Shown: positions 10,345-52,664 of the stretch, piece by piece
How positions within the stretch are numbered: position 1 is the first letter of the stretch
Layout: the number at the start of each line of letters is the position of its first letter
NCBI GenBank assembly: GCA_023411215.1
Contig: JAEYOY010000038.1
Coordinates: 1-64,000, forward strand
Reading direction: 5' to 3'
From: Bacillota bacterium
GTDB lineage: Bacteria; Bacillota; Clostridia; Lachnospirales; Lachnospiraceae
Length of the DNA stretch: 64,000 nt
The notes under the pieces: model-generated
Databases searched by the model: none
Seen by the model: the letters and a program-made list of their open reading frames with translations, nothing else
What the model was told of the DNA's origin: nothing
Translations under genes and position numbers: made by a program

Positions 10345-10424
10345 TATATCCTCCTTAAATATATTTAAAAACGGCAGGTGGTCGGAATGACACCCACCGA
10401 ATACCGATTGAAGATGAGATAAAG

Positions 10425-11665: not shown

Positions 11666-11828
11666 CTTTCTATTCTCCTGTACACTAACTTATCATACCT
11701 TCACTTCTTGTTAGCTTACTTTTTATTCTACCATAAAAGATTAAGTACATCACGATTTATTTTCTTTTCATTTTCTCTATAATCGTGTATTATCATCAAT
11801 ATAACTTCAATGACGAGGAGTCCTACTA

Positions 11829-29871: not shown

Positions 29872-32800
29872 ATGATGCAAAATTCATTTGATACAACACC
29901 TGAAACAGAGGAAAAGTATACCTATTATGCCTTTATCAGCTATAAACATGAAGATGAAAAATGGGCCAGATGGATTCAGAATAAATTGGAGACCTACAAG
30001 TTGCCTACGGTTCTGCAAAAGGAAATTAGAGACCTCCCAAATCGCATCACTCCGATTTTTCGTGATAAGACGGATATCACCTCAGGCCCCTTAAAGAAGA
30101 CCCTTTCGAAGGAGCTACAGTCTTCCAGATTCCTAATAGTCATATGTTCTCCCAATGCAGCAAAATCAATTTATGTGGATTATGAGGTTGAGCAATTTAT
30201 CCGAATGGGAAGACAGGACAGAATCATTCCTCTGATCATCGACGGTGCTGTCAGAACCCAGAACCCTGAACAGGAATGCTTTGTTCCATCTCTTCTTGCA
30301 ATGGAGGAAACCATCCTTGGTGTAGATCTACCTACGCTTGGTAAGCACAAAGCTTTCCTGACAGTTATAGCCACGATGCTTGATATTAAGCTGGATACCC
30401 TAGTGAGGAGGGATCGGATCAGACAAAAGAAAAAAAACCTTCTGGCGACGGCAAGCATCACTATATTGCTGATACTTGCAGGCTTTACACTGGATTATTA
30501 CATCCCTAAGACCTATTATTATTCCGATTATGTACTGCAATGGGGAATACCAAAGGGTATATTCCGGCTTGACTATAGCTTCCTAGCCTTTGGTAAGAAT
30601 GAGCTGAAGGATAGAGACGATTTTTACGCTGTTACCATATCAAAATCCAATAAGACGATTACGCTGAAGCATATGAATTCCGCCATGGTTCCGGTTGACT
30701 ATCCAACCGAAACGGAGCAGAGTGACCGACCGGTTTTTGCAGAATATGATTATAAAGTTACGGATGGAATTAAGCAAGTTTCAGATGCAAAGTACTTCGA
30801 CAGATACGGGAATATTATACTTGTGCTGAAGTATTCGGACGACTCTACCATCGTTGATTTCACCAGCCCAGATGGATCCAACACCCCTGTTACCTTATCC
30901 GGAAGCTTGTTTTCAGAAAACGGTACAATGGATGTTAAAAATTTGGAAATAAAAAGCTCAATCACACGATACATATATCAATATGATGAAAACGGATACA
31001 TCAGTCTGGTTAAATTCATGCGAGATAACCGTGCCACATCCCCTACGCCGGATCAGAACGGAATCACGGGTTACATCTGTACGGTCGATCAATACGGCAG
31101 AGTAGTTACTAAGAGAATGAATTATGTATTTGATAATACCATCCATAATACTGTATTTGACAGAATCTATTACAATTACGCTTACCAATCTCCCAACCTT
31201 GTTAGTGTGGTATATACTGATGCCGAAGATAATTTGATATATAATGGTGATTTCTATGCAAAAAAAGAATTTTTCTATTATGATAATGGGAATATTAGTG
31301 ATATTTATTATTATGGGACAGATGGTGAAAAATGCACAGGCCCTTATGGTTATGCCCACGCCAGCATCATTTACGATAATAAAGGCTTTATACAGGAAGT
31401 TGATTACTATAACGAAAATAATTATCCGGTCATCACCGTATTCGGCTATGCGAAGGCGCAGCATGTACACGACAAGAAGGGCAATTTGACACAAGCTTCT
31501 GTATTCGATACCGATGGGAATCCAGTTGTGGCACTTCCTACTGATATATATCGGTATGTCAGCGGTTTTTCTACGATTCGTCGGGTTTATGATGAGAAAA
31601 ACATGCTCATTAGTGAAACCTATTACGATGAAAACGATGAACCCATGCTTTGTACTGGTGAATATGCAAGGCTCGATACCGCGTATCATAAAGGTCTTCT
31701 CAGTGAAGTAAGCTATTATGATGTTAACGGCGAACCAAAAACATGTAATATAGGCTTTGAAAAATTCACAAAGGAATATAATGAGTTCGACCTGGCGATC
31801 AACTGGCGATACTGCAATGCAGATGGGACCCTGTCGGAAACAACATGGGGATATTCCCGTATTGAGCTAGAGTATGATGAGAATAGAAATATAAAATCCT
31901 ATTCCTTTTATGATGAGAATGACCGACTCGTCATGACGGAAGATAACATTGCCCGCCAGGAACTAGTCTGGGATGACAGAGGACTGTTGTCTGAACAAAG
32001 TAATTATGATACGGTCGGTAACCTTGTTGTTTCAACCGCCGGATATGCCAAGAATGTTAAGGAATACAATGAAAGCGGTTTGTTGACCAAGGATATCTAC
32101 TATGATCAGAATGAGGAGCCGGTGTACGTTCCGGATCAAGGCTATGCAAGATATGAAGCAGCCTATGATGAATATGGTGACTGCACTTATAAGTCATATT
32201 ATGACGTTGATGGTCAGCTGGTTATGACCAATTATGGATATGCAGAATACAAAGCCTGGTATGACAGCAAAGCACAGAAGGTCGAGGAAGCCTATTACGA
32301 CGAAACAGGTAGTCTGGTCCTTCCAAATGGTTATGATTGGGCAAGACATACCATGGCATATACGGAAGAAGGATTACCAAAATGTGAAAGCTATTATGAT
32401 GCAGATAATCACCTGGTAATCAATTCTTACACCGGCTATGCAAAATGCTATGCAGAGTATGATGAGTGGAATAATATGCGTTCAAAAACCTTCTACGGTA
32501 CGGATGGTAAGGAGTTCATCTCACCGAATTTGGGGTTTGCTTCCGTTAAATATGTATACGAGAATAACTACCTGATCAGGACCAGCTATTATGATGAAAA
32601 AGGAGATCTGATTATTTCCCCAACCATTAACTATGCCGAGCAGATCCAGAAGCTGGATTCGAATGGAAAACTTCTTAGCAGCTGTACATATGACGATACA
32701 GGGAAGCCGATCCTTAATCTTTACGGTTATTCCAGCGTAACATGTACCTATAATCAAAAAGGGTTAGAGACAAATAGACAATACCTTGATGCCCAGGGCA

Positions 32801-33276
32801 AGCCGACGATTGCCCTGAATTATGGTTACGCAGAGATGGATATTCTTTATAATAAGGATGGTACATGGAAAAATGCCGTATTTTATGACCAGAGTGGCAA
32901 GGAAATTGATTCAAATCTGATTGTAACGAAATCCTTTGTATATATTTCTGAGGTTAAAGCACAGAGTGCCGGCTTAAAAGCCGGAGTACATATTAATGAT
33001 CTTATACTGCAGTACGGCGACTGGTGTTATTTCCCTGTGAATGAAGAAGATAGTATGTTTACCCTTCTTACAAATGAATTAGAAAGAGTAAAGGATTTAT
33101 CTAAAAAAGTTGTAATATATCGTCCGACGGACGCTTCCATCCAAACCTATCAATTTGATAGCGGGATGGTGGGACTACGAATTAACTCTGTAGATTTCAG
33201 CTTCCCGAGTCAGGAGGCTTATATGGAATACAGCACGGGACTGGAGTCGGCTTATCTTAGTAGCGGCTTAGAATAA
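29872..33276 (+). CDS. TIR-domain transmembrane protein with extracellular YD-like repeats and C-terminal PDZ-like domain
   Basis: N-terminal TIR_2-like motif (YYAFISYKHEDEKWARWIQNKLE...FLIVICSPN...DYEVEQF). One TM helix (LLATASITILLILAGFTLDYYI). About 20 tandem ~23-aa YD-like repeats (GYA...YDE.G.L.....YYD..G.PV). C-terminal GLKAGVHINDLILQYGDW PDZ-like segment. Confidence 0.6.
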   Translation: MMQNSFDTTPETEEKYTYYAFISYKHEDEKWARWIQNKLETYKLPTVLQKEIRDLPNRITPIFRDKTDITSGPLKKTLSKELQSSRFLIVICSPNAAKSIYVDYEVEQFIRMGRQDRIIPLIIDGAVRTQNPEQECFVPSLLAMEETILGVDLPTLGKHKAFLTVIATMLDIKLDTLVRRDRIRQKKKNLLATASITILLILAGFTLDYYIPKTYYYSDYVLQWGIPKGIFRLDYSFLAFGKNELKDRDDFYAVTISKSNKTITLKHMNSAMVPVDYPTETEQSDRPVFAEYDYKVTDGIKQVSDAKYFDRYGNIILVLKYSDDSTIVDFTSPDGSNTPVTLSGSLFSENGTMDVKNLEIKSSITRYIYQYDENGYISLVKFMRDNRATSPTPDQNGITGYICTVDQYGRVVTKRMNYVFDNTIHNTVFDRIYYNYAYQSPNLVSVVYTDAEDNLIYNGDFYAKKEFFYYDNGNISDIYYYGTDGEKCTGPYGYAHASIIYDNKGFIQEVDYYNENNYPVITVFGYAKAQHVHDKKGNLTQASVFDTDGNPVVALPTDIYRYVSGFSTIRRVYDEKNMLISETYYDENDEPMLCTGEYARLDTAYHKGLLSEVSYYDVNGEPKTCNIGFEKFTKEYNEFDLAINWRYCNADGTLSETTWGYSRIELEYDENRNIKSYSFYDENDRLVMTEDNIARQELVWDDRGLLSEQSNYDTVGNLVVSTAGYAKNVKEYNESGLLTKDIYYDQNEEPVYVPDQGYARYEAAYDEYGDCTYKSYYDVDGQLVMTNYGYAEYKAWYDSKAQKVEEAYYDETGSLVLPNGYDWARHTMAYTEEGLPKCESYYDADNHLVINSYTGYAKCYAEYDEWNNMRSKTFYGTDGKEFISPNLGFASVKYVYENNYLIRTSYYDEKGDLIISPTINYAEQIQKLDSNGKLLSSCTYDDTGKPILNLYGYSSVTCTYNQKGLETNRQYLDAQGKPTIALNYGYAEMDILYNKDGTWKNAVFYDQSGKEIDSNLIVTKSFVYISEVKAQSAGLKAGVHINDLILQYGDWCYFPVNEEDSMFTLLTNELERVKDLSKKVVIYRPTDASIQTYQFDSGMVGLRINSVDFSFPSQEAYMEYSTGLESAYLSSGLE

Positions 33277-33382: not shown

Positions 33383-35137
33383 TTATTCCATTACCTCACA
33401 AAGATCATATAATAATACAAGACTATCACCAACCGGTATTTCACCTTCCGCAATATCAAATCCTGATCCATTATATCGAAGTACTTTTACTTTGCTATTT
33501 TCATTTTTTATTCTGGCAGTCACAATATCTTCCATGGTCTTTATTTTTTTGCCGTTCATTTCAATTAAGATATCACCAAGCAGATAGAAGCTGTTCTGTG
33601 GCTTATCCGGTTCATACCCACCGATTAAACATCCGTAGTCAATCCCTGTACTGTCAACTTGTCTAAAGAATGCCTCTGCAATTGGAATGAAAACATCTGC
33701 CTCATCCGATGTATCCTTCTCATGGAATATCTCAAGGCATTCAATACACATATCATACATCTTCAGGGTATTAAAGCGAAGCATCTTCCCCCATATTATG
33801 CCTACTTCATCCGTCTCTAATGGTTTAAATTTTTCCTTTGCTTCTTCCTTTGTCTTATTCAATTCTTCCGTGACTTCCTTTAGTTTATTTACCTTACCCT
33901 CCAGCTCATCGAGCTGTACATTATAATCCCCTATTATAGAAGCAATTTCAGTAATTATATTTTGATACTTCGTAAAATTTGCGTCTGATATCGCTTTTAT
34001 TTCTTCCTTATTCTTACTCCACGACTGCCCATTATAGATATCCGGTAGTATGGGGAGCAATTCTGCTTTAAAATCTTTCAGAGCATCTTCATCTACATCA
34101 ACCAGGATATCATTTATGCCATAAAAAATCAGGTCCTTATTAATATCCATAATCTGTTCATAATAATCTGACAATTGAGTCATCGATGTTTTGGATAATA
34201 CACTTTCACCGGAGGACATATATATCATGTAGTCAATATTATTGAGGAATTCATCGGTACAAGTGATTAGGAAGTCCCTTACAGCAATAATATCATCTTT
34301 TGCTAGAATGGTATTATCAAGCTTTGCCGATAAAGTATCATCCAGTGTGACATAATTATCCTTCGCCTTTGTGATTTTCTCCTTGTTCTTTCTTAAATCC
34401 GATTGAAGAGCAGTATAATTAATTTCAGTCGGATCTGTTAGATAGTATTGGAATGCAGTTATAGCAAGATCATATTCTGCGATTGCTATATTGGCATTTG
34501 TTAAGTTTGTTGAAATATAATATATTACTTCCTTTACGGTGTTCTTATCCGCTTTCGAATATGGAAACGATGCCTGTGTTGTTTGATAGAACTGATACCC
34601 TGTGAATATGACACCAAAAGTAACAAACAATGCAATAACCAAGGGTAAAACCTTTTTAATTAAGCTATTATGAGTGATTCTATGTACAATCCTAGGCTTT
34701 GTTTTTAAAAATTCTACCAACCGTTTTGCAAAAGCATCAAAAAATTCTGTAGATGCCTCTATTCCGCTTTGATACCGAAGCTGTTCCATATCCTCGGGTA
34801 GCTTATCAGGAAATTGAAAGCCTCTTAACAGGACCGGTACCACATTCTTCCTTTTCTGTAAAGCATAAGCTACTTCCAGTCTGACCCAGTCATTATCATT
34901 GCCACATCGCTCCAAACAATTCGGCGATAAAACGGAGATAAAATCCTCGCATTCATCGATTACTGAAAACAGCTTTGAGTTGAATTGCCCCGAGCGAAGC
35001 GATTCAACGTCAAAAAATACATTATATCCCAATTCGGTTAATTTATCATGAATTATTTTAGCTGTATACTCTCCGCCTTCACGCCGATAGCTTATAAAAA
35101 TATCATATTTCATAGTAACTATACCTCCCTGATACAA
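33383..35137 (-). CDS. TIR-domain transmembrane protein with extracellular coiled-coil region and C-terminal PDZ-like domain
   Basis: N-terminal TIR (KYDIFISYRREGGEYTAKIIHDKLTELGYNVFFD...DFISVLSPNCLERCGNDNDWVRLEVAYAL). TM helix (VLPLVIALFVTFGVIFTGYQFY). C-terminal GDILIEMNGKKIKTMEDIVTARIKNENSKVKVLRYNG PDZ-like. Confidence 0.6.
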   Translation of the reverse strand: MYQGGIVTMKYDIFISYRREGGEYTAKIIHDKLTELGYNVFFDVESLRSGQFNSKLFSVIDECEDFISVLSPNCLERCGNDNDWVRLEVAYALQKRKNVVPVLLRGFQFPDKLPEDMEQLRYQSGIEASTEFFDAFAKRLVEFLKTKPRIVHRITHNSLIKKVLPLVIALFVTFGVIFTGYQFYQTTQASFPYSKADKNTVKEVIYYISTNLTNANIAIAEYDLAITAFQYYLTDPTEINYTALQSDLRKNKEKITKAKDNYVTLDDTLSAKLDNTILAKDDIIAVRDFLITCTDEFLNNIDYMIYMSSGESVLSKTSMTQLSDYYEQIMDINKDLIFYGINDILVDVDEDALKDFKAELLPILPDIYNGQSWSKNKEEIKAISDANFTKYQNIITEIASIIGDYNVQLDELEGKVNKLKEVTEELNKTKEEAKEKFKPLETDEVGIIWGKMLRFNTLKMYDMCIECLEIFHEKDTSDEADVFIPIAEAFFRQVDSTGIDYGCLIGGYEPDKPQNSFYLLGDILIEMNGKKIKTMEDIVTARIKNENSKVKVLRYNGSGFDIAEGEIPVGDSLVLLYDLCEVME

Positions 35138-41015: not shown

Positions 41016-41828
41016 ATGGTATATGAAACATTGGATACAATCGTTGCTACAATTGAATATTATAACCATCGCGAGAGAACTCCTGATTGGTGCATTGATG
41101 ATGCAATTATTAATTTCGTCGATATCACCTATATAGTTAACGGCCAGGCAGAATATACAATCGATGGTCAAAAATACATTGTATCTGCCGGGGATCTGCT
41201 ATGCATCCCTTCCGGAAGCCGTCGCTCTGCCTTCACCTATCCTGATTCGTTAGTCGAATCCTATTGCATCAACGGTATGATACGTAATATTGATGGAGAG
41301 GACATCAGTCCCCCCTTCCCTACGGTAAGTAAAATAGGAATTTATAAGGATATTATTTCCCTTTATAGTGACCTGACCTGTATATGGCATCTACGGGATC
41401 CTGGTTATCACCTTAAGGCCAGAGCAATCTATCTAATGATCCTCCAGCGTTATCTTCAGATTATTGTATACCAGAAGGATACCAACATTACAGACAAGAG
41501 GATAAAAAAGGCACTTCACTATATGACCACTCATTATCAAGAGTCACTTACTGTGCAGAAGATGGCGGAACTGGTGAATTTAAGCAATATGTATTTCGGA
41601 AATCTGTTCAAGCAGGAAACCGGTATGTCCTTTCATAAATTCTTGACCTCTATTCGCCTAAATCGTGCAGAGGATATGTTGTACAGCGGCGAATACAAGA
41701 TCAATGAGATTGCTGATGCCTGCGGTTTTTCCGATGTATTCTATTTCAGCCGCTTATTCAAAGAGAGCAGGGGCTTTGCACCGTCCAATGTGATCCGAAC
41801 CAGAAAAGAACATAGCATAAATGAATAA
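41016..41828 (+). CDS. AraC-family transcriptional regulator
   Basis: N-terminal cupin-like sensor and C-terminal AraC HTH (FGNLFKQETGMSFHKFLTSIRLNRA). Divergent from the ABC sugar importer. Confidence 0.85.
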   Translation: MVYETLDTIVATIEYYNHRERTPDWCIDDAIINFVDITYIVNGQAEYTIDGQKYIVSAGDLLCIPSGSRRSAFTYPDSLVESYCINGMIRNIDGEDISPPFPTVSKIGIYKDIISLYSDLTCIWHLRDPGYHLKARAIYLMILQRYLQIIVYQKDTNITDKRIKKALHYMTTHYQESLTVQKMAELVNLSNMYFGNLFKQETGMSFHKFLTSIRLNRAEDMLYSGEYKINEIADACGFSDVFYFSRLFKESRGFAPSNVIRTRKEHSINE

Positions 41829-41839
41829 TCCATATGAAG

Positions 41840-41868
41840 AAGGTCTGCCTGGCAGACTTTCTTTTATT
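41840..41868 (+). terminator. intrinsic terminator after AraC gene
   Basis: ggtctgcctggcagac hairpin followed by tttcttttatt. Confidence 0.55.
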
Positions 41869-42039
41869 ATATAACAATAGAATACTACTTCGAGAACTTT
41901 CTATTGTCATGAATCAAAAAGAGCAGCTATGTCGTTCAATGCATTCGAGGTTTTAGTTTAATCCAATAACTTGAATGCAACAGAACTCATCCGCTGCTCT
42001 CTCTAAGGATTATTGCTTTCTAATAATCCTTTATTCACA

Positions 42040-43227
42040 CTAATATAGATGTCCCATCTTTTCTTTCTTTGTCTCAAAGTATCTCTTATTATACTTATTT
42101 GTATCCATTATGATAGGTACCCTCTCTACGATCTCAATTCCATGGCCTCTTAGACCTACCAGCTTCTTCGGATTATTGGTCATTAACCGAATTTTTCCAA
42201 CCTTTAACTCACTTAATATCTGAGCACCTATGCCGTAATCTCTCATATCTGCCGGGAAGCCCAACGCAATATTCGCTTCCTCCGTATCCAACCCTTCCTC
42301 CTGAAGCTTATAAGCTTTTATCTTATTAATCAAGCCAATTCCACGACCCTCCTGCCTCAGATACAAGAGGACACCCTTCCCCTCTTTTTCGATATTCTGC
42401 AAGGCAGCTGCCAATTGCTCACCACAATCGCATTTTAAGGAATGAAAGGCATCACCTGTCAGACATTCGGAGTGAACCCGAACCAGAACTTCGTCATTAG
42501 GATCAATTATACCTTTTACCAGGGCAACATGATGCTCACCATTCAACTTATTAACAAAGCCTACCATTCGAAAATCACCATATTCGGTAGGTAGATTGGC
42601 TTCCGCTTCCCTCACTACATAACAATCGGTCTCTCTCCGGTAGGCAATCAGTTCCTCTATCGTTATGATCTTAAGGTCCTCTCTCCTTGCATATTCCAGT
42701 AGCTGCTCCCCCCGTAATACATCACCCGTGTCGCCAAGTACCTCTGTGAAGGTACCTGAGGGGTAGCTGCCTGCTATTTTCGCAAGATCCGAAGCGGCTT
42801 CCGCATATCCGGCTTTCTTTAGAACGCCGCCCTCTGATGCTTTCATGATAAAGACATGACCAGGCGTTTTAAAATGATTGGGATCAATTGAGTGCTTTAG
42901 TAAGCTTCGTATGGTTTGCTCCCGGCCCTCTGCAGTAATCCCGTTCATACTATCAATTCCATCTACGGATAGCAGATAAGCATTGGGATTGCTATGATTT
43001 CCATAGGCGTTAAGCTGTGGTAATCTAATCTCATTTATCTTCTCAGAAGGAAGCGAGATGCAGGTAAATCCAGTACCATGCTTCATCATATAATTAATAT
43101 TTTCCTTCACAGCCAGCTCGCTTGCAACGAAGAATACACCTCCACTTATTGCCAGGTCATCATCGGCAATGATAACAATTTTACTCTTTTTAACATCTTC
43201 AATAACATCATGTAATTCTACTGACAT
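42040..43227 (-). CDS. ribBA: RibBA-like bifunctional protein: GTP cyclohydrolase II domain intact, DHBP synthase domain apparently degenerate
   Basis: The C-terminal GCHII is conserved (VRVHSECLTGDAFHSLKCDCG; YLRQEGRGIGL). The N-terminal RibB-like domain has DDDLAISGGV instead of DDEDRENEGD, and GYAEA instead of the catalytic GHTEA. Confidence 0.85.
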   Translation of the reverse strand: MSVELHDVIEDVKKSKIVIIADDDLAISGGVFFVASELAVKENINYMMKHGTGFTCISLPSEKINEIRLPQLNAYGNHSNPNAYLLSVDGIDSMNGITAEGREQTIRSLLKHSIDPNHFKTPGHVFIMKASEGGVLKKAGYAEAASDLAKIAGSYPSGTFTEVLGDTGDVLRGEQLLEYARREDLKIITIEELIAYRRETDCYVVREAEANLPTEYGDFRMVGFVNKLNGEHHVALVKGIIDPNDEVLVRVHSECLTGDAFHSLKCDCGEQLAAALQNIEKEGKGVLLYLRQEGRGIGLINKIKAYKLQEEGLDTEEANIALGFPADMRDYGIGAQILSELKVGKIRLMTNNPKKLVGLRGHGIEIVERVPIIMDTNKYNKRYFETKKEKMGHLY

Positions 43228-43279
43228 TTGTTTATCCTCCTTGTTTGATTATGCAGTATTTATGTTGAATAATTTGTTC

Positions 43280-44392
43280 TTATATTAAATACCCTTTAAC
43301 GATAACATCTGGGCCGACTATCTCATGTGACACCCGCTTAAGTACAATTGCATCTCTCATGTATTCGATGCCTTCGCCTCCGACTGGAGTAAAAGCGTTT
43401 CTGCCACCAATTATTTTAGGAGCTATTGCTGCATAGACCTTATGCACGCAACCGCTCTCAAAGGCAGAGGCAAGAATTGCACTCCCTCCTTCAATATATA
43501 AGGAATCAATGCCCATACTCCCCAACAATCTCATGATATCTCGAAAGTCAATCCGATTATTCACTTCCTTTAGCTTGGCAATCAGAATCCCTTTCTCAAG
43601 AAACTCTTCCTCTTTTTGAGGTGATAGTTTATCCGAGGTGATAATCAAGGTTTTCACGTTTTCATCTACCTTAAGCACCTTAGCTTCCATCGGGATATCG
43701 CCATACCTTGATACAATAACACGCAGTGGATTAGAAACCTTCACACCGCTCAGTCTTGTTGTGAGCATCGGATCATCCATTTTAACGGTATTCTCCCCAA
43801 CCATGATTGCTGTGACCCGCTGTCGTAAGTGATGGACGAACCGCAAGCTATCCTCCGAGCTGATCCATTTGGAATCGCCTGTCTTCGTAGCCAGCTTTCC
43901 ATCCAGTGTCATCGCCCATTTAACAAAAACAAAGGGCTCTTTATTCTTTATATAATAGGAATAAATTTCATTCTGCTCTTCACACTCTGCGGAAAGAACT
44001 CCAACCTCAGCATCTACTCCTAACTTGGTAAGTTCTGACCAGAAATCCATTTTCTTCTTAGGATTAGGATCAGGCATACCGACAAATAGCTTAGCAATTC
44101 CTCTTTCTTTAATCAGGTTAAGACATTCCTGAACTCTTGGCTCGGATTGAAACGGTTCAATATTCAGATAAAGCTCGGCACCTGTCAGATCATCCGTTGT
44201 CTGCCTCAATACTTTTATCTCGGCAGGTTCAGAACCATAAGCCACATAACAAGCCTCCCCAAGTATTCTACCATCTTTAACCAGTAATGCACCGGACAGA
44301 GGATCTGGATTAACAAAACCGCTGCCTTGATTAGCCAACTCAATAGCTCTCTTCATATATTCTGTATTCATAGGATATCCCCCCTGTAGCAT
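43280..44392 (-). CDS. ribD: RibD-like protein: pyrimidine reductase domain intact, deaminase zinc site apparently degenerate
   Basis: The reductase region is conserved (TLDGKLATKTGDSKWISSE). The deaminase motifs are altered: EAHAE becomes SEPAE, and PCSHxGxTPPC becomes PFQSEPRVQEC, so 2 of 3 Zn ligands are lost. Confidence 0.85.
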   Translation of the reverse strand: MLQGGYPMNTEYMKRAIELANQGSGFVNPDPLSGALLVKDGRILGEACYVAYGSEPAEIKVLRQTTDDLTGAELYLNIEPFQSEPRVQECLNLIKERGIAKLFVGMPDPNPKKKMDFWSELTKLGVDAEVGVLSAECEEQNEIYSYYIKNKEPFVFVKWAMTLDGKLATKTGDSKWISSEDSLRFVHHLRQRVTAIMVGENTVKMDDPMLTTRLSGVKVSNPLRVIVSRYGDIPMEAKVLKVDENVKTLIITSDKLSPQKEEEFLEKGILIAKLKEVNNRIDFRDIMRLLGSMGIDSLYIEGGSAILASAFESGCVHKVYAAIAPKIIGGRNAFTPVGGEGIEYMRDAIVLKRVSHEIVGPDVIVKGYLI

Positions 44393-44629
44393 AAAACTGA
44401 TTATAATGCTTTATAACACGAGATAACTAATCCGCTTATATTGCATAAGATGATGAACCTTATATTGTATTATATTAATTTCTGTTAAGTGTGTCAATTT
44501 TATTGTTATTTTCAAAATTTAATGCTCCGATTAGCGAATTTCCCAAACAATAGCAGTGCAGGTATATAATGTTACATAGGAGCTTTATTTGTTTTATAAT
44601 ACCCACTTTCCATGTAACGATTGAAAGCA

Positions 44630-44738
44630 CACTTCGCGAGCTTACTATTGTCCTATACGATGTCATAAACCGGTAGAAACACGCTTCGCGAACTTTCTAT
44701 TGTCCTATACAAGATGAATTGATAAATCAATTCACTTG
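44630..44738. repeat. two tandem copies of a dispersed intergenic repeat plus a shared 31-bp segment
   Basis: cacttcgcgagcttactattgtcctatacgatg (44630-44662) and cgcttcgcgaactttctattgtcctatacaagatg (44682-44716). atacaagatgaattgataaatcaattc recurs at 52248-52274. Related CTTTCTATTGTCA copies sit at 13180, 15093, 41888 and 52320-52377. Confidence 0.5.
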
Positions 44739-44873
44739 TAATAAAAAACAGAGTAAACAAGGATTCATCCTTATATACTCTGTCTCTGTAATATTCATAA
44801 ACTGAGAAAGATATTTCTTATGAGCTCCCAACACTTTATCCAGCAACTCAACTGAATCGCTTGGGAGCCATTC

Positions 44874-45119
44874 TTATACCCTACTCATGATCTTCTCAAC
44901 AAAGAATTCTTTGACCTGTTTTGGTTCGATCCGAAATTCCTCATTATCCACCTTAATGGATACCCCTTTGGCCTGGCACTGCTTCATGCAAAATATTGCT
45001 TCAAAATTGAGTTGATCATGCAAGGAATGCTGCTCTATCAATTGTTGAATATCCTGAACTACATTGTAAGAACCGTTCAGATGGCAGGACGTACCGACGC
45101 ATACTCTAACTTCGACCAT
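44874..45119 (-). CDS. thioredoxin-like [2Fe-2S] ferredoxin-domain protein (NuoE-like mini protein)
   Basis: 81 aa. CVGTSCHLNGS and CMKQC Cys pattern of NuoE/HndA-type 2Fe-2S domains. Last gene of the hydrogenase operon. Confidence 0.6.
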   Translation of the reverse strand: MVEVRVCVGTSCHLNGSYNVVQDIQQLIEQHSLHDQLNFEAIFCMKQCQAKGVSIKVDNEEFRIEPKQVKEFFVEKIMSRV

Positions 45120-46817
45120 TTAAATATGCTCCTTTCCATGGGTGTAATCCACATGTAGTAGTTCATGAACCCTGCCCTGCAATACTCCCTTATAGAGGGT
45201 CATCATCAGAGGATTCTCCTCTGCAAATTTCACATTGCATAGCTTATCTGCCGCATACAGGCCTTTTCCTCTACCTTCACGAACCTTCGACTCTGCAAAG
45301 GGTTGACCGGCACCGCTTACACAGCCACCGGGACAAGCCATGACCTCTACAAAATCATAATGCTCACCGGATTTTATCCGTTCAATCAGATCACTAGCAT
45401 TCTTCAGACCACTGACAATTGCTATCTTAACTTCTTTGTCACCATACATAACTGTGGTTTCCTTCACGCCCTTCATTCCTCTGACACCCTGATAAGCAAT
45501 CGACATAAGTGCTCCCTTGGATTTATCAGCAGAGAGTCTACGAAGCACAGCCTCGGTTACCCCCCCTGTAACACCGAAGATTACTCCTGCTCCTGTCATA
45601 GTTCCAAAAGGCATATCAACAGCCTCCGGTTCCAAATCATTGAAAATAATTCCAGCTTCGCGGATCATCTGGATCAATTCCTGTGTCGTAATGACATAAT
45701 CTACATTGGGACTGCCCTCTACCATAAACTCTTCTCTTGTTGCTTCCTGTTTCTTAGCCGTACAGGGCATAATCGCAATATGTACATGGCGGCGGCTGGA
45801 GCTGCTGGATTGATCCTTAACAATGGATGCCAGCATCTGCATCGGAGAACGGCAGGTAGATACATTTGGTAACAGCTCAGGATAATTCTTCTCACAATAC
45901 TGAACCCAGGCAGGACAGCAGGATGTAAATAGGGGTAATTGACTGCCGTTTTGCAAGCGGCCAAGGAATTCCGAGGTTTCCTCCAGTACGGTAAGATCCG
46001 CTCCGGTACTGGTATCATAGATTTCATCAAAGCCCATACGGCGCAGAGCTGCAACAATCTTGCCCATTGCATTTTCTTCCGATTTCACATCCATCTTCTT
46101 CCCAAGTCCAACGCGGACTGCCGGCGCGATTTGCACCGTCACCTTAGTATTTACATCATCTAGGGCTTCCCATACCTTCTGGGTATGATTCTTTACAACG
46201 ATGGCACCGGTGGGACACACAGCAGCACACTGTCCGCAGCCGACACAGGGAGATTCAGCAATCGGAATATCAAAGGCGGTACTGATGGTCATATTGGAAC
46301 CGCGGTGCGCAAAGTCGATGGCACCGACATTCTGTATCTCGTTACACATTCTTACACAATCTCCGCAAAGAATGCATTTATTCGTATCTCTGGTAATGCT
46401 TACCGAAGAATCATCCAGTCTGGGATGTTCTGCAGTATTCGGAAAGCGTACCCCAGTAATATTAAATCTCATAGCCAGATCCTGAAGCTTACACTTCCCG
46501 TTGTTGCCACAGGTGGTGCAATCGCGGCAATGGTTTGCCAGCAGCAGCTCTAGTATATTCTTACGGTATCTGCGCAACCGTTCCGTATTTGTCTTGATAT
46601 TCATACCTGCCTTCGGTATCGTGGAGCAGGCCGCATCGATTCCACCCCATTCATTCTCGACCATGCACATACGACAGGCGCCATAGATAGAAAGTTCAGA
46701 ATGATAGCAGAAGGTTGGCATCTTGATACCGACTTTACGAATCAGCTCCAATAGGTTTTTTTCCTGGCTTATTTCTACGGGTATACCGTCAATTGTCATA
46801 ATTTTATTCTTATCCAT
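45120..46817 (-). CDS. hydA: [FeFe]-hydrogenase catalytic subunit (HydA/HndD, bifurcating type)
   Basis: H-cluster motifs L1 (TSCCPAW), L2 (MPCTAKKQE) and L3 (EVMACPGGCVSGAGQP). N-terminal 2Fe-2S and 4Fe-4S ferredoxin domains. Confidence 0.9.
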   Translation of the reverse strand: MDKNKIMTIDGIPVEISQEKNLLELIRKVGIKMPTFCYHSELSIYGACRMCMVENEWGGIDAACSTIPKAGMNIKTNTERLRRYRKNILELLLANHCRDCTTCGNNGKCKLQDLAMRFNITGVRFPNTAEHPRLDDSSVSITRDTNKCILCGDCVRMCNEIQNVGAIDFAHRGSNMTISTAFDIPIAESPCVGCGQCAAVCPTGAIVVKNHTQKVWEALDDVNTKVTVQIAPAVRVGLGKKMDVKSEENAMGKIVAALRRMGFDEIYDTSTGADLTVLEETSEFLGRLQNGSQLPLFTSCCPAWVQYCEKNYPELLPNVSTCRSPMQMLASIVKDQSSSSSRRHVHIAIMPCTAKKQEATREEFMVEGSPNVDYVITTQELIQMIREAGIIFNDLEPEAVDMPFGTMTGAGVIFGVTGGVTEAVLRRLSADKSKGALMSIAYQGVRGMKGVKETTVMYGDKEVKIAIVSGLKNASDLIERIKSGEHYDFVEVMACPGGCVSGAGQPFAESKVREGRGKGLYAADKLCNVKFAEENPLMMTLYKGVLQGRVHELLHVDYTHGKEHI

Positions 46818-46868
46818 TTCAATTCACCATGCTGCAGCATCTTTGCAGCTTAATCCTTTCTCCACTTC

Positions 46869-48737
46869 TTACGCGATTGCATGGAATGGACATGCAGTGA
46901 TACAAGCTCCACACTTGATACATTTCGTTCCATCAATATGAAAGGGTTCCTTCACTTTGCCACTGATTGCATTCACCGGACAGGACCTGGAGCATTTTGA
47001 GCAGCCCTTACAAAGGTCTGGATCAATCGTAATTGATTTTAGTTTCTGGCAGTTACCGGTGGGGCAGTGTTTTGCATGGATATGTGCCTCATATTCTTCT
47101 CGGAAATGCTTGATGGTACTGACAATAGGGAAAGGAGCTGATTTTCCGAGACCGCAGAGAGCAGTGGAGGATATGGTATCCGCAAGCTCCAGAAGCAGTT
47201 CAATATCCCCTTCCTCGCCTTCTCCCTCTATGATTCTCTCCAGGATGGCAAGCATTCTCTTAGTGCCCTCACGACAGGGTACACATTTACCACAGGATTC
47301 ATTCTGGGTGAAATTCATAAAAAACCGCGCCACTTCCACCATACAGGTGCTCTCATCCATAACCACCAGACCGCCGGATCCGATCATCGCACCGGCTTTC
47401 TTTAGTGAATCGAAATCCAGAGGAAGATCCAGGTCTTCCTTCGTCAGACAACCACCGGAGGGACCGCCGATCTGAACTGCCTTAAACTCCCCTCCGTCCT
47501 TCATACCACCACCGACCTCAAAGATAACTTCTCTTAATGTCGTGCCCATAGGCACTTCAATCAAACCTGTGTTCTCAATGTTTCCGGTTAATGCAAAGGC
47601 TTTCGTTCCCGGGCTCTTCTCCGGTCCGATCTGCTTATACCATTCCGCTCCGTTATTGATAATCAACGGTACATTGGCATAAGTCTCTACGTTATTCAAC
47701 ACGGTAGGTTTATCGAACAAGCCTTGCTCTACTGTTCTTGGCGGTTTTACTCTTGGCATACCGCGCTTGCCTTCGATGGAGGCAGTCAGCGCACTTCCTT
47801 CTCCGCAGACAAAGGCTCCGGCACCGCGGTTAATATGTATCTGAAAGGAAAAACCGGTTCCAAGAATATTCTCACCCAACAGCCCATATTCCGTTGCCTG
47901 TTCAATCGCCAGCTTCAGGCGGCTAACAGCCATCGGATATTCAGCACGTACATAAATGTAGCCTTCATCCGCTCCACAAGCCAAACCAGCAATCATCATA
48001 CCTTCCAGCATTCTATGTGGATCCCCCTCCATGATGCTTCGATCCATAAATGCACCCGGATCGCCCTCATCTCCGTTACAAACCACATATTTTTTGGACT
48101 CCTTCTGTCTCTTAACCTGGGCCCATTTGCGTCCGGCAGGGAAACCACCGCCCCCTCTGCCCCTAAGATTAGACTCTGATATCTCGTTGATAATGTCATC
48201 GCCGGTCAACTCAAAGAGAGCCTTCTCAAAGGCTGTATATCCACCTATTCCGAAGTATTCCAGAATTGAGGTTGCATCAATCTGACCGCAATGCTCTAGT
48301 ACCAGACGGGTCTGACGCTTATAAAAGGGGATATCATCTTGCTTTTGATAAACGATACCATCCTTCTTATAAGAGAGGCGTTCGATGTGTTCTCCCTGGA
48401 TTATTGTCTTATCTATAATTTCTTCGCAGTCAGTGAGCTTAACCTTAGTATATAACCACCCCTGAGGCTCAATGCGTACCAAAGGTCCCATCTCGCAGAA
48501 GCCGTGACATCCGCTCTGTTTCATACCAACCGTCTCTTCATGAGGTTCTTTGGCCAGTTCTACACTGCAGGGCACCTTTTTATCCTGTAACAGTTCTGTT
48601 AAACGATCAAAAATGTCAAGTGCTCCGCTGGAAACACAACCAGTTCCAGCACATACCAGTATTTTCTGCGTCTGCCACTCCAGAGAGCTGCCATAGACAG
48701 CACGTACCTGAACCAGATCTTCTCTTGATTTTAGCAT
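46869..48737 (-). CDS. hydB: NuoF-like NADH-binding flavoprotein subunit of [FeFe]-hydrogenase (HydB/HndC)
   Basis: NuoF FMN/NADH motifs (GRGGGGFPAGRKW; CGKCVPCREG), N-terminal 2Fe-2S, and C-terminal 2x[4Fe-4S] (CKGCSKCSRSCP, CIKCGACITACP). Confidence 0.9.
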   Translation of the reverse strand: MLKSREDLVQVRAVYGSSLEWQTQKILVCAGTGCVSSGALDIFDRLTELLQDKKVPCSVELAKEPHEETVGMKQSGCHGFCEMGPLVRIEPQGWLYTKVKLTDCEEIIDKTIIQGEHIERLSYKKDGIVYQKQDDIPFYKRQTRLVLEHCGQIDATSILEYFGIGGYTAFEKALFELTGDDIINEISESNLRGRGGGGFPAGRKWAQVKRQKESKKYVVCNGDEGDPGAFMDRSIMEGDPHRMLEGMMIAGLACGADEGYIYVRAEYPMAVSRLKLAIEQATEYGLLGENILGTGFSFQIHINRGAGAFVCGEGSALTASIEGKRGMPRVKPPRTVEQGLFDKPTVLNNVETYANVPLIINNGAEWYKQIGPEKSPGTKAFALTGNIENTGLIEVPMGTTLREVIFEVGGGMKDGGEFKAVQIGGPSGGCLTKEDLDLPLDFDSLKKAGAMIGSGGLVVMDESTCMVEVARFFMNFTQNESCGKCVPCREGTKRMLAILERIIEGEGEEGDIELLLELADTISSTALCGLGKSAPFPIVSTIKHFREEYEAHIHAKHCPTGNCQKLKSITIDPDLCKGCSKCSRSCPVNAISGKVKEPFHIDGTKCIKCGACITACPFHAIA

Positions 48738-49276
48738 GCTAATTCCTCCTTTAATTCCTTTAAAAGTTCAGAGGTTTTCTCCGGTGTCATGGCAGGATAT
48801 ACCTTATCGTTTACCGTAATTACCGGTGCCAATCCACAAGCACCGAGGCAAGATACGGTCTCAACGGTGAAGCCAAGGTCATCCGTTGTCGTCTTCTTAT
48901 CGGAAAGCCCCAGTTCCTCTCTAAGCTTTGCCAATATTGGAATTGACTTTCGAACATGACAGGCAGTACCGTCACATATTTTAATCACAAATTGTCCTTT
49001 GGGCTCCAGAGAAAAATTCTCATAAAAAGTTGCTGTACTGTAAATTCTGGCTTCACTCACACCGATCCTCTTCGATAAATAGGGGAATACCTCTCTCGGT
49101 AAATAGCGGTAATGTTCCTGAACCCCCTGTAAAATTGCAATGATTGCACTTTGTTTGCAACCGTGCTCTTCAATAATCTTGTCAACCACTGCATAATCAA
49201 ATGTATCGTTCATAACTTTCCTCCATTCTCTTGTCTGAAAAGAATTATATAATCTAGGGTTATCATCAATGGACAT
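48731..49276 (-). CDS. hydC: NuoE-like 2Fe-2S subunit of [FeFe]-hydrogenase (HydC/HndA)
   Basis: CDGTACHVRKS...CLGACGLAPV thioredoxin-like 2Fe-2S pattern. Confidence 0.85.
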   Translation of the reverse strand: MSIDDNPRLYNSFQTREWRKVMNDTFDYAVVDKIIEEHGCKQSAIIAILQGVQEHYRYLPREVFPYLSKRIGVSEARIYSTATFYENFSLEPKGQFVIKICDGTACHVRKSIPILAKLREELGLSDKKTTTDDLGFTVETVSCLGACGLAPVITVNDKVYPAMTPEKTSELLKELKEELAC

Positions 49277-49910
49277 CTTTGTTTAACTTCTGGGCTAAAT
49301 GATTGGACAGGATTGCCAAGGAGCTGGCCAGATTTTCATTTTTAACCAGTATCTGCTCCGACACCTGCAGGTGAACTGATGAAAAATTCCAGATCGCCTT
49401 GATACCACAGTCCACCAGCATATCACAAGCCTTTTGTGCCATCCGGGAGTCTACGGCGATGATACCGATTTTTATCTTCATTCTGGAACAGACACCTGGC
49501 AGTTTGCTAAGCGGCAGTATCTTATTCATATGATTATCGGTATTCTGTAGGTTCTCCTCCTCATCAAAGGCTGCTATGATATCCATTCCATAATCCAAGA
49601 ACCCCTCATAAGCCAGCAGAGCCTGCCCAAAGCTGCCTGTTCCAATCAATACGGCAGATTGCACATTGTCATAACCAAGGCAATGCTCCAGATCACGAAT
49701 TAATTCCTGTAGGACATATCCGACCTTCGGGCGTCCGCCACCGCTGACCTGCGCTAAATCCTTTCGGACCTGTACATCATTCAACCTTAATTCATGGGCT
49801 ATGGTTGTTGCCGAAATATTGGCTGCCCGCTCCTTAGGCAGGCTCTTAAGAAAGCACAGATACAAAGGCAAGCGCTTTATCATCTGTGTCGTCAAGGTCT
49901 TTGCCTCCAT
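49266..49910 (-). CDS. rex: redox-sensing transcriptional repressor Rex
   Basis: Winged-helix N-terminus (ISATTIAHELRLNDVQVRKDL) and Rossmann GxGxxG (VLIGTGSFGQAL). Confidence 0.85.
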   Translation of the reverse strand: MEAKTLTTQMIKRLPLYLCFLKSLPKERAANISATTIAHELRLNDVQVRKDLAQVSGGGRPKVGYVLQELIRDLEHCLGYDNVQSAVLIGTGSFGQALLAYEGFLDYGMDIIAAFDEEENLQNTDNHMNKILPLSKLPGVCSRMKIKIGIIAVDSRMAQKACDMLVDCGIKAIWNFSSVHLQVSEQILVKNENLASSLAILSNHLAQKLNKDVH

Positions 49911-49922
49911 GCTTCACTCTCC

Positions 49923-51311
49923 CTAACCGGATATAAATTCATCTATTGCAGTCGCTGCCGTCTTACCTGCACCCATCGCTAATATTACTGTAGCTGCTCC
50001 GGTTACAGCATCTCCACCGGCATACACGCCTGTTCTCGAGGTAAGACCCGTTGCTTCTTCAACCACGATGCCTCCCCACTTATAAGTCTCAAGCCCGCTT
50101 GTTGTCGCTTTGATTAATGGATTTGGTGAGGTTCCGATTGCCATGATGACACAATCTGTCTCCAGCTCAAACTCACTATCCGGCACCGGGATCGGCTTCT
50201 GTCTTCCCGAGGCATCCGGTTCTCCCAATTCCATCTGCTGACACAGGACACCTTTCACCCAATTCTTTTCTTTCTCTTTAATAGCAAGTGGATTGGTCAG
50301 GAACAGAAATTGTATCCCTTCCTCTTTGGCATGCTCGACCTCTTCCAAACGGGCAGGTAATTCCTTCTCGGTACGACGATATATAATCGTCACCTCCGCT
50401 CCGAGACGCTTTGCACAACGGGCCGCATCCATAGCAACATTCCCGCCGCCTACGACTGCTACTCGGTTCCCCTTCTGAATGGGCGTCATCGCACCATTCT
50501 CATAAGCTTTCATTAGGTTGATTCTTGTTAGGAATTCATTAGCAGAATATACCCCTTTTAGATTCTCTCCTGCTATATTCATAAAATTCGGGAGACCGGC
50601 TCCTGAACCGATGAATACTGCTTCATAACCGTAATCCTGTATCAATTCATCAATGGATACGGTTTTTCCGATTACCATATTCGTTTTTATCTCTACCCCT
50701 AATTCTTTCAGGGTGGTGATCTCTTTATTAACGATATCCTTTGGGAGTCTGAATTCAGGAATACCGTAGACAAGCACGCCACCAGCCAAGTGCAAGGCTT
50801 CAAAAACTGTGACTTCATAACCTTTCTTCGCCAGGTCTCCGGCGCAGGCCAGTCCAGACGGACCGGATCCGATTACAGCCACCTTATGTCCGTTGCCCTG
50901 GGGCTGTACTGCCTTACCTGTGCTATTAGCGTTATGATAGTCTGCTACAAAACGCTCCAATCGTCCAATTGCCACAGCTTCCCCTTTCATACCTCTGACA
51001 CATTTTGACTCACATTGTGATTCCTGAGGACATACTCTTCCGCAGACAGCCGGAAGGGAGCTTGCCTTGGCAATCACTTGAAATGCTTCCTCAAAGTTAC
51101 CCTTTGCTACCTCCTGTACAAATACAGGTATGTCGATCTGGACAGGACATCCGGATACGCATTGCTTGTTCTTACAATTCAAACAGCGCCTGGCTTCATC
51201 CATCGCCTGCTCCATACTATAGCCCAGTGCTACCTCAAGGAAATTACTATTTCTGATTCCTGCCTCGCGGACTGGCATTTCATTTTTTATTAAAGACATG
51301 TTTGCTGCCAT
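49923..51311 (-). CDS. nfnB: NfnB/GltD-family NADPH-dependent oxidoreductase (glutamate synthase small-chain-like)
   Basis: N-terminal 2x[4Fe-4S] Cys clusters (CLNCKNKQCVSGCP; CGRVCPQESQCESKC). FAD and NADPH GxGxxG motifs (VAVIGSGPSGLA; VAVVGGGNVAMD). Confidence 0.8.
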   Translation of the reverse strand: MAANMSLIKNEMPVREAGIRNSNFLEVALGYSMEQAMDEARRCLNCKNKQCVSGCPVQIDIPVFVQEVAKGNFEEAFQVIAKASSLPAVCGRVCPQESQCESKCVRGMKGEAVAIGRLERFVADYHNANSTGKAVQPQGNGHKVAVIGSGPSGLACAGDLAKKGYEVTVFEALHLAGGVLVYGIPEFRLPKDIVNKEITTLKELGVEIKTNMVIGKTVSIDELIQDYGYEAVFIGSGAGLPNFMNIAGENLKGVYSANEFLTRINLMKAYENGAMTPIQKGNRVAVVGGGNVAMDAARCAKRLGAEVTIIYRRTEKELPARLEEVEHAKEEGIQFLFLTNPLAIKEKEKNWVKGVLCQQMELGEPDASGRQKPIPVPDSEFELETDCVIMAIGTSPNPLIKATTSGLETYKWGGIVVEEATGLTSRTGVYAGGDAVTGAATVILAMGAGKTAATAIDEFISG

Positions 51312-51312
51312 A

Positions 51313-52155
51313 CTATAATACCTCTGCTTTCAGGAGATTACAGGTTGTCTCATGAATCTTACGTTCAAATTCCAGGTACATGGAAGATCTGGCGATCGCT
51401 TCATCAAAATCAATTTCATGCCCGTCAAATTCAGGTCCATCCACACAGGCGAATTTGGTTCTGCCACCAACGGTCAGACGACAACCGCCACACATTCCGG
51501 TTCCGTCAATCATAACCGGATTCATACTCGCAACCGTCTTAATGTTGTATTCCTTGGTCAGCCTACTGACGAACTTCATCATGACAAGCGGTCCTATGGT
51601 TACAACCTCATCGTATTGTTCACCATGATCAATCAGCTTCTTCAGAGCATCGGTTACAAGCCCCTGTTCTCCACAGCTACCATCATCGGTCATCACGATA
51701 AATCGACTGCTGTTCTTCCTGAATTCTTCCTCTAAAATCACTAGCTCCTTGGAACGAAAGCCTACGATTGCGTGAACTTCAGTTCCCTGCTCGTGGAACT
51801 TTTTCACCACCGGATAAGCGATCGCGCATCCGACACCACCACCGACAACCGCTACCTTCCGCTTCCCCTCTGTCTCTGTAGAGCGACCGAGAGGACCGAC
51901 AAAATCCTTAAGATAATCGCCTTCCTTCATATAATTAAGTTGCTCTGTCGTAGCACCGACAATCTGAAAAATAATTGTGACAGTTCCTCTATTCCGGTCA
52001 AAATCCGCAATTGTCAACGGCATTCTCTCCCCATTTTCATCGGTTCTCAGAATGATAAACTGTCCCGGCTCAGCCTTTCTTGCTACCATGGGCGCATCAA
52101 TTTCCATCAAGGTGACCGTGGGATTTAGTATTTGTTTTCTAACAATTTGGTACAT
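51313..52155 (-). CDS. nfnA: NfnA/SudB-like FAD/NAD-binding, 2Fe-2S subunit
   Basis: Ferredoxin-NADP reductase-like fold with C-terminal Cys cluster (CGGCRLTVGGRTKFACVDGPEF). The start is set at the internal MYQIVRK rather than the ORF-track Met. Confidence 0.7.
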   Translation of the reverse strand: MYQIVRKQILNPTVTLMEIDAPMVARKAEPGQFIILRTDENGERMPLTIADFDRNRGTVTIIFQIVGATTEQLNYMKEGDYLKDFVGPLGRSTETEGKRKVAVVGGGVGCAIAYPVVKKFHEQGTEVHAIVGFRSKELVILEEEFRKNSSRFIVMTDDGSCGEQGLVTDALKKLIDHGEQYDEVVTIGPLVMMKFVSRLTKEYNIKTVASMNPVMIDGTGMCGGCRLTVGGRTKFACVDGPEFDGHEIDFDEAIARSSMYLEFERKIHETTCNLLKAEVL

Positions 52156-52664
52156 ATCAGCCTCCTGGTTCTTTACACTTTCTTTTTTATATAAATCATA
52201 ACCCCCTGTATCTAAGCAGCTACAGTGATCGATATCGGCTAATCTCAATACAAGATGAATTGATAAATCAATTCGCTTATATTGAATAAAAGGCTGCGGC
52301 CATTGACGACAGCAGCCTTATTCATGACAATAGATCGTTCGCAAGGCGTGCTTTCTATTGTATTGTGAATGAAAACCTGAGGCAAACAAGTCCTCATTCC
52401 TATATTCTAAATCGATAACTTAGCTTGCGTGGCGACACAATTTTCAGTTAAGGATTAGAAAGCAACTTCAGTATCGTAACAACAATACCGTAATTTTCTT
52501 TCCCTCAGGGGTAATAGATCCGGGATAGGATCCAGTACATGCATAGCCGACTGCAACTCAGAAACCTTCCACTGAGGACTCTATGATGTCTGTTGTTTCG
52601 TTGTCGTTCTGCGGTTTCATGAATTGTCTATATTTTAACAATCTATATCGCTAATGTGAAATGC

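Follow-up and report, generated by a model that had tools for sequence, protein, structure and literature searches.

A RibD-RibBA-like gene pair with degenerate half-domains in Clostridia, probably one half of a riboflavin pathway split over two loci

Results

The gene pair and its domains

We analyzed 64,000 nucleotides of DNA from a Bacillota bacterium of the Lachnospiraceae (contig JAEYOY010000038.1 of assembly GCA_023411215.1, positions 1 to 64,000 of the forward strand). This whole stretch is called the window. Two co-directional genes on its minus strand encode a RibD-like and a RibBA-like protein, the subject of this work. These two names are used below for the window proteins and the clades to which they belong, and the fully bifunctional forms are called canonical. 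The genes and their domains are:

43280..44371, minus strand: RibD-like gene, 363 amino acids; a deaminase half predicted to be dead and an intact reductase half
43937..44371, minus strand: pseudo-deaminase domain, about residues 1-145 of the RibD-like protein; fold kept, zinc site lost
43280..43936, minus strand: pyrimidine reductase domain, about residues 146-363 of the RibD-like protein plus the stop codon
42040..43227, minus strand: RibBA-like gene, 395 amino acids; a DHBPS half (DHBPS, the synthase of 3,4-dihydroxy-2-butanone 4-phosphate) predicted to be dead, fused to an intact GTP cyclohydrolase II
42628..43227, minus strand: pseudo-DHBPS domain, about residues 1-200 of the RibBA-like protein; acidic metal-binding loop and His-Thr of the HTE motif lost
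42040..42627, minus strand: GTP cyclohydrolase II domain, about residues 201-395 of the RibBA-like protein plus the stop codon; canonical

The RibD-like open reading frame (ORF) was listed as 43280-44392. Its start was corrected from 44392 to the ATG at 44371, because a GGGGGG ribosome-binding site (44384-44379) precedes this ATG by six bases and most homologues also have 363 amino acids. No homologue of ribE or ribH was found in the whole 64-kb window. This agrees with the sequence-only reading of the stretch, which had noted that riboflavin synthase and lumazine synthase genes are absent from the locus.

The RibD-like protein

The deaminase half was compared with Bacillus subtilis RibG (PDB 2b3z). 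GEAHAEV of RibG is replaced by GSEPAEI, with proline in place of the zinc-ligand histidine and the catalytic glutamate retained, and LEPCSHYGKTPPC is replaced by IEPFQSEPRVQEC, with phenylalanine in place of the first cysteine. Two of the three deaminase zinc ligands are thereby gone. The second zinc cysteine is present in the window protein, yet in only 16% of its clade. A full set of zinc ligands was found in none of the 120 nearest homologues (53-100% identity) and at none of 38 genome loci, where one member retains the HAE motif alone; many of the nearest homologues carry deletions at the position of PCx8-9C. The match to dCMP_cyt_deam_1 (PF00383) scored 22.6, under the cut-off of 25. The whole-protein model for bifunctional RibD, TIGR00326, was passed at 254.4 against a cut-off of 156, and therefore the protein is named a bifunctional deaminase/reductase by sources. 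Among columns with 95% or higher conservation across canonical proteins (canonical-invariant columns), the clade keeps 11 of 45 (24%) in the deaminase half, and the ratio of nonsynonymous to synonymous substitution rates (dN/dS; pairwise between close relatives, as for all ratios given here) was 0.12-0.23. The AlphaFold model of the protein has a mean predicted local distance difference test score of 84, with about 88-97 across most of the pseudo-deaminase domain. It superposes with both domains on B. subtilis RibG, the nearest solved structure, with a template modeling score of 0.83. The deaminase half is thus predicted to be a folded, catalytically dead domain.

The reductase half matched RibD_C with 160 bits, and in every one of 38 clade members the positions equivalent to Lys151, Asp199, Arg206 and Glu290 (B. 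subtilis numbering) hold the same residue. In this half the clade keeps 41 of 48 canonical-invariant columns (85%), and dN/dS was 0.06-0.09. Lys151 of B. subtilis RibG (Lys152 in Escherichia coli) has been proposed to recognize the C2 oxygen of the deaminated substrate, and yeast RIB7, which reduces before deamination, has threonine at this position; a T35K mutant shifts the preference about 3-fold (PMC3631187). Since the lysine is invariant in the clade, the bacterial order is expected, with deamination followed by reduction, and the reductase half is predicted to be active on the deaminated substrate. The archaeal and fungal order, in which reduction precedes deamination, was considered and rejected based on the same lysine and on a TIGR01508 score of 143.9 against a cut-off of 186.

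The RibBA-like protein

For the RibBA-like protein the reference was Mycobacterium tuberculosis RibA2 (PDB 4i14). DDEDRENEGD of the acidic loop has become DDDLAISGGV, and GHTEAA has become GYAEAA with loss of the His-Thr. The DHBP_synthase Pfam match still reached 168 bits. TIGR00506 (ribB) scored 137.6, under its cut-off of 177, and every model for bifunctional RibBA failed (NF006803 / PRK09311, 485.5 against 569). Several members of the clade are labeled just 'GTP cyclohydrolase II' by NCBI. The cyclohydrolase half passed TIGR00505 (ribA) with 280 against a cut-off of 206 and matched GTP_cyclohydro2 (PF00925) with 251 bits; its zinc cysteines (E. coli C54, C65 and C67) are intact in SECLTGD and KCDCG, as is the equivalent of Tyr105 in KAY. 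The sequence-only reading had listed altered zinc ligands in RibD beside a kept reductase, and in RibBA a RibB half lacking the acidic loop (AISGGV) and the HTE motif (YAE) beside a canonical GTP cyclohydrolase II. Alignment to the characterized proteins confirmed every one of the listed substitutions, and both live halves were recognized as described.

The same division was seen throughout the clade. In about 100 nearest homologues (at least 57% identity) the DHBPS motifs are degenerate and the cyclohydrolase motifs invariant, and canonical RibBA sequences with DDEDRENEGD and GHTEAA begin just under 57% identity. The DHBPS motifs were degenerate in every clade member examined. The clade keeps 17 of 74 canonical-invariant columns (23%) in the DHBPS half and 77 of 83 (93%) in the cyclohydrolase II half; dN/dS was 0.09-0.18 in the former and 0.01-0.03 in the latter. 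From these losses the DHBPS half is predicted to be catalytically dead. Because the pseudo-DHBPS domain is shortened in one relative (L033), split off in another (L020) and absent in Clostridium cavendishii (L035), which has a RibA of 212 amino acids only, it appears to be dispensable in places.

Distribution, phylogeny and selection

In a scan with one genome per species, the RibD-like protein was found in at least 37 species-level Clostridia genomes at 54-89% identity, including uncultured Bacillota, Herbinix, Mobilitalea and a dozen Clostridium species. The RibBA-like gene nearly always follows directly after it in these genomes, and the ORFs of both are intact in nearly all of the species. 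In neighbor-joining trees of the live domains the RibD-like proteins were monophyletic in 100 of 100 bootstraps and the RibBA-like proteins in 93 of 100. The RibD-like proteins grouped with Clostridia RibD on trees made without plant sequences. Both groups thus appear to be old, monophyletic clades. All four domains are under purifying selection, the dead halves included. Values of dN/dS span 0.01-0.09 across the live halves and 0.09-0.23 across the dead ones, so decay of the genes is ruled out.

The sister group of the RibBA-like clade (82 of 100 bootstraps) consists of degenerate RibBA proteins from Acholeplasmataceae. At four loci of this family and related metagenome-assembled genomes (L045, L046, L048, L055; about 10000-13000) we observed a canonical RibD with intact HAE and PCx8C, a RibBA with degenerate DHBPS motifs (DDDEEDNVGE, GHPEA) and a HAD hydrolase. 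At these four loci no ribE or ribH was found between the genes, and no FMN (flavin mononucleotide) riboswitch. By its gene content, this set of three genes would lead to 5-amino-6-ribitylaminouracil.

Promoter and leader of the pair

Upstream of the RibD-like gene two features were recognized:

44469..44497, minus strand: likely promoter of the pair, TTGACA-17 nt-TATAAT (12 of 12 matches); promoter function predicted from the motif
44372..44461, minus strand: short leader of about 90 nt; transcription start placed according to the promoter

The 480-bp spacer upstream of the pair contains a hairpin just behind the hydrogenase operon, the promoter and the leader of about 90 nt, and is not one long leader. 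Alignment of upstream regions showed that the promoter sits in a 45-nt block (44469-44513, minus strand). The promoter block is matched exactly in five loci (L001, L002, L004, L005, L011), and the counterpart of the 45-nt block in L004, L005 and L011 lies at about 9862-9912. Throughout the block, with the whole 17-nt spacer included, sequences are identical or almost identical between species with saturated synonymous sites. Because of this conservation, we suggest that an operator for a regulator may overlap the promoter.

The sequence-only reading had recognized no FMN riboswitch upstream of the pair, and the searches agree. No Rfam family reached its gathering score across the whole 64-kb window, and no FMN riboswitch was found in 41700-45200 at Rfam E≤10, or with our own FMN covariance model, built from nine riboswitches of the rib loci found here. 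The latter model detected an FMN riboswitch at each of the 30 canonical ribD-E-BA-H loci retrieved and at none of the 35 loci with the pair. The leader folded no better than shuffled sequence (z = -1.05). A hidden FMN riboswitch was rejected on all four grounds: gathering score, E≤10 search, own model and leader folding. Its own promoter and a leader without riboswitch argue that the pair would be transcribed strongly and independently of FMN.

Two further structures were seen by eye in the same spacer. At about 44743-44790 (minus strand), directly behind the small last gene of the hydrogenase operon, lies a long hairpin followed by a T-run, which was not flagged in the terminator consensus scan and is probably the terminator of that operon. 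At about 44600-44710 (minus strand) there is what looks like an imperfect direct repeat (about 52 nt; gtataggacaatag...cgcgaag...), with two copies in the window and one in L004. As a tandem repeat this candidate was dropped, not being confirmed by Tandem Repeats Finder.

Complementary riboswitch operons in relatives

The complete chromosome of Clostridium manihotivorum CT4 carries the pair without riboswitch (L027) at 0.87 Mb, with proteins 59-63% identical to those of the window. At 5.83 Mb, 5 Mb away from the pair, it has an operon with an FMN riboswitch (115 bits), a deaminase-only protein of 145 amino acids, RibE, a RibB-only protein of 202 amino acids with intact DDEDRENEGD and GHTE, RibH and a HAD hydrolase. 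Judged by their motifs, the two loci would be exactly complementary, with cyclohydrolase and reductase at one, and deaminase, DHBPS, lumazine synthase and riboflavin synthase at the other. In Clostridium folliculivorans the pair (L029) is accompanied by an operon of FMN riboswitch, deaminase-only protein, RibE, fully canonical RibBA, RibH and HAD hydrolase, which would represent an intermediate state.

In three further species, Clostridium acidisoli, Clostridium akagii and an uncultured member of the Clostridiaceae (L032), the gene order is HAD hydrolase, RibD-like gene, FMN riboswitch (114-122 bits), deaminase-only gene, RibE, canonical RibBA and RibH. The deaminase-only proteins have 142-168 amino acids with intact HAE and PCx8C, and the RibD-like protein is the sole reductase seen in or beside these riboswitch operons. 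The HAD-family hydrolase immediately upstream of the RibD-like gene in L031, L032 and L034 (about 8500-9950, plus strand) lies outside the riboswitch; it has 235-239 amino acids in L031 and L034, is partial in L032, and is a candidate for the pathway phosphatase.

With the deaminase-only protein as query, relatives were found to occur in genomes carrying the pair. The L091 genome has a riboswitch followed by deaminase-only protein, RibE, RibBA and RibH. The short deaminase matches in L088, L092 and L093 are RibD genes called as two ORFs. In L092 and L093 (6001-7100) deaminase and reductase are adjacent ORFs in otherwise complete rib operons and look like assembly frameshifts. In L088/L089 (6001-8969) the two-ORF RibD is followed by a RibE of 628 amino acids with a C-terminal extension of about 410 amino acids, and no RibBA or RibH comes after it. 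A separate arrangement was observed in Peribacillus (L080, L083; 9219-11101), where the gene directly upstream of a canonical RibD encodes a cyclohydrolase II-like protein of 249 amino acids whose zinc motif is altered (MHSICHTGD). Near these genes, which may belong to a different pathway fed by cyclohydrolase II, neither an FMN riboswitch nor ribE or ribH was found.

Neighborhood of the pair

Upstream of the pair, 44874-52248 (minus strand) encodes a [FeFe]-hydrogenase large subunit (565 amino acids), NuoF-like (622 amino acids) and NuoE-like proteins, a Rex-type regulator, a GltD-like oxidoreductase and a DHODB-type Fe-S subunit. This gene set looks like an electron-bifurcating hydrogenase cluster. 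Downstream are an AraC-type regulator and a sugar ABC transporter, and one further feature was recorded on this side:

41836..41864, no strand assigned: terminator-like hairpin between the 3' end of the RibBA-like gene and the convergent AraC-type regulator gene; consensus match only

The hydrogenase operon on one side and the regulator and transporter on the other are syntenic with the pair in close relatives only, and among 34 loci no gene family was conserved around the pair beyond close relatives. At the Herbinix metagenome-assembled genome locus L010 a superoxide dismutase-like gene (3997-4623, minus strand) lies on the opposite strand between the RibD-like and RibBA-like genes, and a close homologue is found in the window at 55056-55682 (plus strand), about 11 kb from the pair. 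Farther away, adjacent large proteins of 1134 and 584 amino acids with TIR-like N-termini are encoded at 29872-33276 (plus strand) and 33383-35137 (minus strand), just downstream of the stretch with the lowest G+C content in the window (0.33-0.34, 26-30 kb). The 584-amino-acid protein matches PF13676 TIR_2, and the two genes may form a defense island.

Discussion

We consider it probable, at roughly 75%, that the pair makes up half of a riboflavin pathway whose genes are split over two loci. The RibBA-like protein would act only as GTP cyclohydrolase II, converting GTP to the diaminopyrimidinone ribotide. Deamination would then be done by a separately encoded protein, after which the sole role of the RibD-like protein would be NADPH-dependent reduction of the deaminated intermediate. 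The genes for DHBP synthesis, lumazine synthase and riboflavin synthase would likewise lie apart from the pair, and the missing activities are expected in an operon under FMN-riboswitch control elsewhere in the genome. The N-terminal halves, though dead, would persist as folded domains, probably with a part in assembly or regulation, and the pair would be transcribed from its own strong promoter, free of FMN control. The enzyme activities are predictions from motifs and orthology. We assign the window pair to riboflavin synthesis because of orthology to the pairs with partner operons, strong purifying selection and the absence of an alternative genomic context; a partner operon in the window's own genome is expected from the same orthology.

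Several points weigh against this interpretation. Within the 64-kb window there is no rib gene besides the pair, and among the top 120 matches of the deaminase-only query no partner operon could be linked to the lineage of the window. The partner operon of C. folliculivorans has a fully canonical RibBA, so the RibBA-like protein is redundant there and not required. A second, canonical RibD may be present elsewhere in these genomes. The rule for Lys151 is based on structures and the one yeast mutant, T35K, with its effect of about 3-fold. It would be unusual for a Firmicute to have the first committed step free of FMN control.

The main rival is that the window organism has a complete canonical ribD-E-BA-H operon and that the pair adds non-essential, FMN-independent capacity. 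Canonical operons are found in many Lachnospiraceae (for instance L067 and L074), the strong promoter without riboswitch would suit such a role, and in C. folliculivorans the RibBA-like protein is redundant. However, the first gene of every partner operon seen is deaminase-only, without a reductase, so at least the RibD-like protein would be needed in those genomes, and an extra reductase would bring little benefit without an extra deaminase. We regard this alternative as unlikely. The sequence-only reading had instead suggested a two-step module that would stop at 2,5-diamino-6-ribitylamino-pyrimidinone 5'-phosphate, perhaps a paralogous pathway for a flavin-analogue, toxoflavin-like or deazaflavin precursor. 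Read in this way, the pair would be self-contained and make that compound or another pyrimidine for a product other than riboflavin. In its favor, cyclohydrolase II and the reductase are the sole live halves, no FMN riboswitch controls the pair, and cyclohydrolase II can feed other pathways, as faba bean VC1 does in vicine synthesis (PMC12202586). The invariant Lys151 speaks against this, favoring a deaminated substrate, and no accessory genes are conserved around the pair in the 34 loci. Moreover, orthologous pairs coexist with a complementary riboswitch operon: precisely these two activities are missing from the partner operon in C. manihotivorum, and the reductase is missing in C. folliculivorans. 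In three species the RibD-like gene directly adjoins a genuine rib operon. That the pair serves a product other than riboflavin is thus quite improbable. The other suggestion made from sequence alone, that an auxotroph carries these genes as the decaying remains of a rib operon, would explain why catalytic residues are gone from two half-domains and why ribE and ribH are not at the locus. It is very improbable given intact ORFs in nearly all of the at least 37 species, the dN/dS values (below 0.25 even in the dead halves), the 85-93% of canonical-invariant columns kept in the live halves and the conserved promoter.

A further idea concerns the dead halves themselves, which could serve in docking or regulation and restore hetero-oligomers by binding the live enzymes that separate genes encode. 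In this picture the deaminase-only protein would be the partner of the pseudo-deaminase, as inactive paralogues partner active ones in other deaminases, and RibB that of the pseudo-DHBPS. Purifying selection on the dead domains, the high-confidence fold of the pseudo-deaminase and the reported modulation by the dead half of RibBX are compatible with docking. C. cavendishii, without the pseudo-DHBPS domain, counts against it, and at least that domain is dispensable there. We hold docking as tentative and rather unlikely. If true, the uncontrolled and the riboswitch-controlled halves of the pathway would be tied together, labile intermediates would be handed from enzyme to enzyme, and control at the protein level would stand in place of FMN control of the first committed step.

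Under the split-pathway interpretation the pair resembles known systems in its parts. In plants, PyrR (Arabidopsis At3g47390; maize DEK33) is a RibD homologue and the pyrimidine reductase of the pathway, and a second RibD homologue, PyrD, is the deaminase (Hasnain 2013, as cited in PMC6793443). Some plant versions of the RibD deaminase domain are inactive (Iyer 2011, PMC3239186), and this survey of the deaminase fold names plants alone as having inactive RibD versions. The RibD-like protein and the deaminase-only protein divide the labor in the same way as PyrR and PyrD. The inactive plant domain is presumably that of PyrR. Unlike the plant protein, the RibD-like protein is bacterial, of independent origin and without a COG3236 domain, and its partner deaminase has no reductase domain at all, whereas plants keep a degenerate one. 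Plant RIBA3 is a bipartite DHBPS-cyclohydrolase II that has lost essential residues only in the DHBPS part and is thereby a monofunctional cyclohydrolase II (PMC3509567). The fused RibBA-like protein is also dead in the DHBPS part only; unlike RIBA3 it is bacterial and stands beside a RibD-like gene, and within its clade the dead domain has been eroded and, in one species, lost altogether. The pair can be seen as a two-gene unit in which bacterial counterparts of PyrR and RIBA3 stand together, and whose partner operon, as in C. manihotivorum, is pared down to single-domain deaminase and RibB proteins.

Among bacteria, the proteobacterial RibBX (Shewanella, Aeromonas, Bradyrhizobium) is likewise a RibBA-like fusion with one dead half and a separate gene that supplies the missing activity, and its dead RibA half is reported to modulate the live RibB half (PMC10012899, citing Brutinel 2013). 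It is the mirror image of the protein described here, with RibA dead and RibB live in RibBX, and RibB dead and RibA live in the RibBA-like protein. The B. subtilis-type ribD-ribE-ribBA-ribH operon has the same protein families in the same pathway; unlike it, the pair lacks the riboswitch, ribE and ribH, and each of its proteins has one inactive half. In E. coli the rib genes are scattered and the FMN riboswitch acts on ribB only, so cyclohydrolase II escapes FMN control (PMC5397151). Separate loci and a cyclohydrolase II outside FMN control are thus common to both, but E. coli has single-domain RibA and RibB, a fully bifunctional RibD and no dead domains. We found no description of the bacterial RibD-RibBA-like arrangement in the full-text literature, the coverage of which is incomplete, so that an earlier mention is possible.

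The arrangement matters for how these genomes are read. Databases call the RibD-like protein a bifunctional deaminase/reductase, and many call the RibBA-like protein bifunctional. Metabolic reconstructions of these Clostridia and of Lachnospiraceae-like genomes from digesters and sediments will then credit activities that the proteins are predicted to lack, and vitamin B2 prototrophy or auxotrophy may be miscalled. An ordinary, testable split-pathway explanation would take the place of a speculative new pathway. The first committed step of riboflavin synthesis would escape the FMN riboswitch in a Firmicute lineage. The pair would also be a clear bacterial case in which duplicated genes of a vitamin pathway have undergone complementary loss, independent of plant PyrR/PyrD and RIBA3, and intermediate stages of this loss appear to survive in different species.

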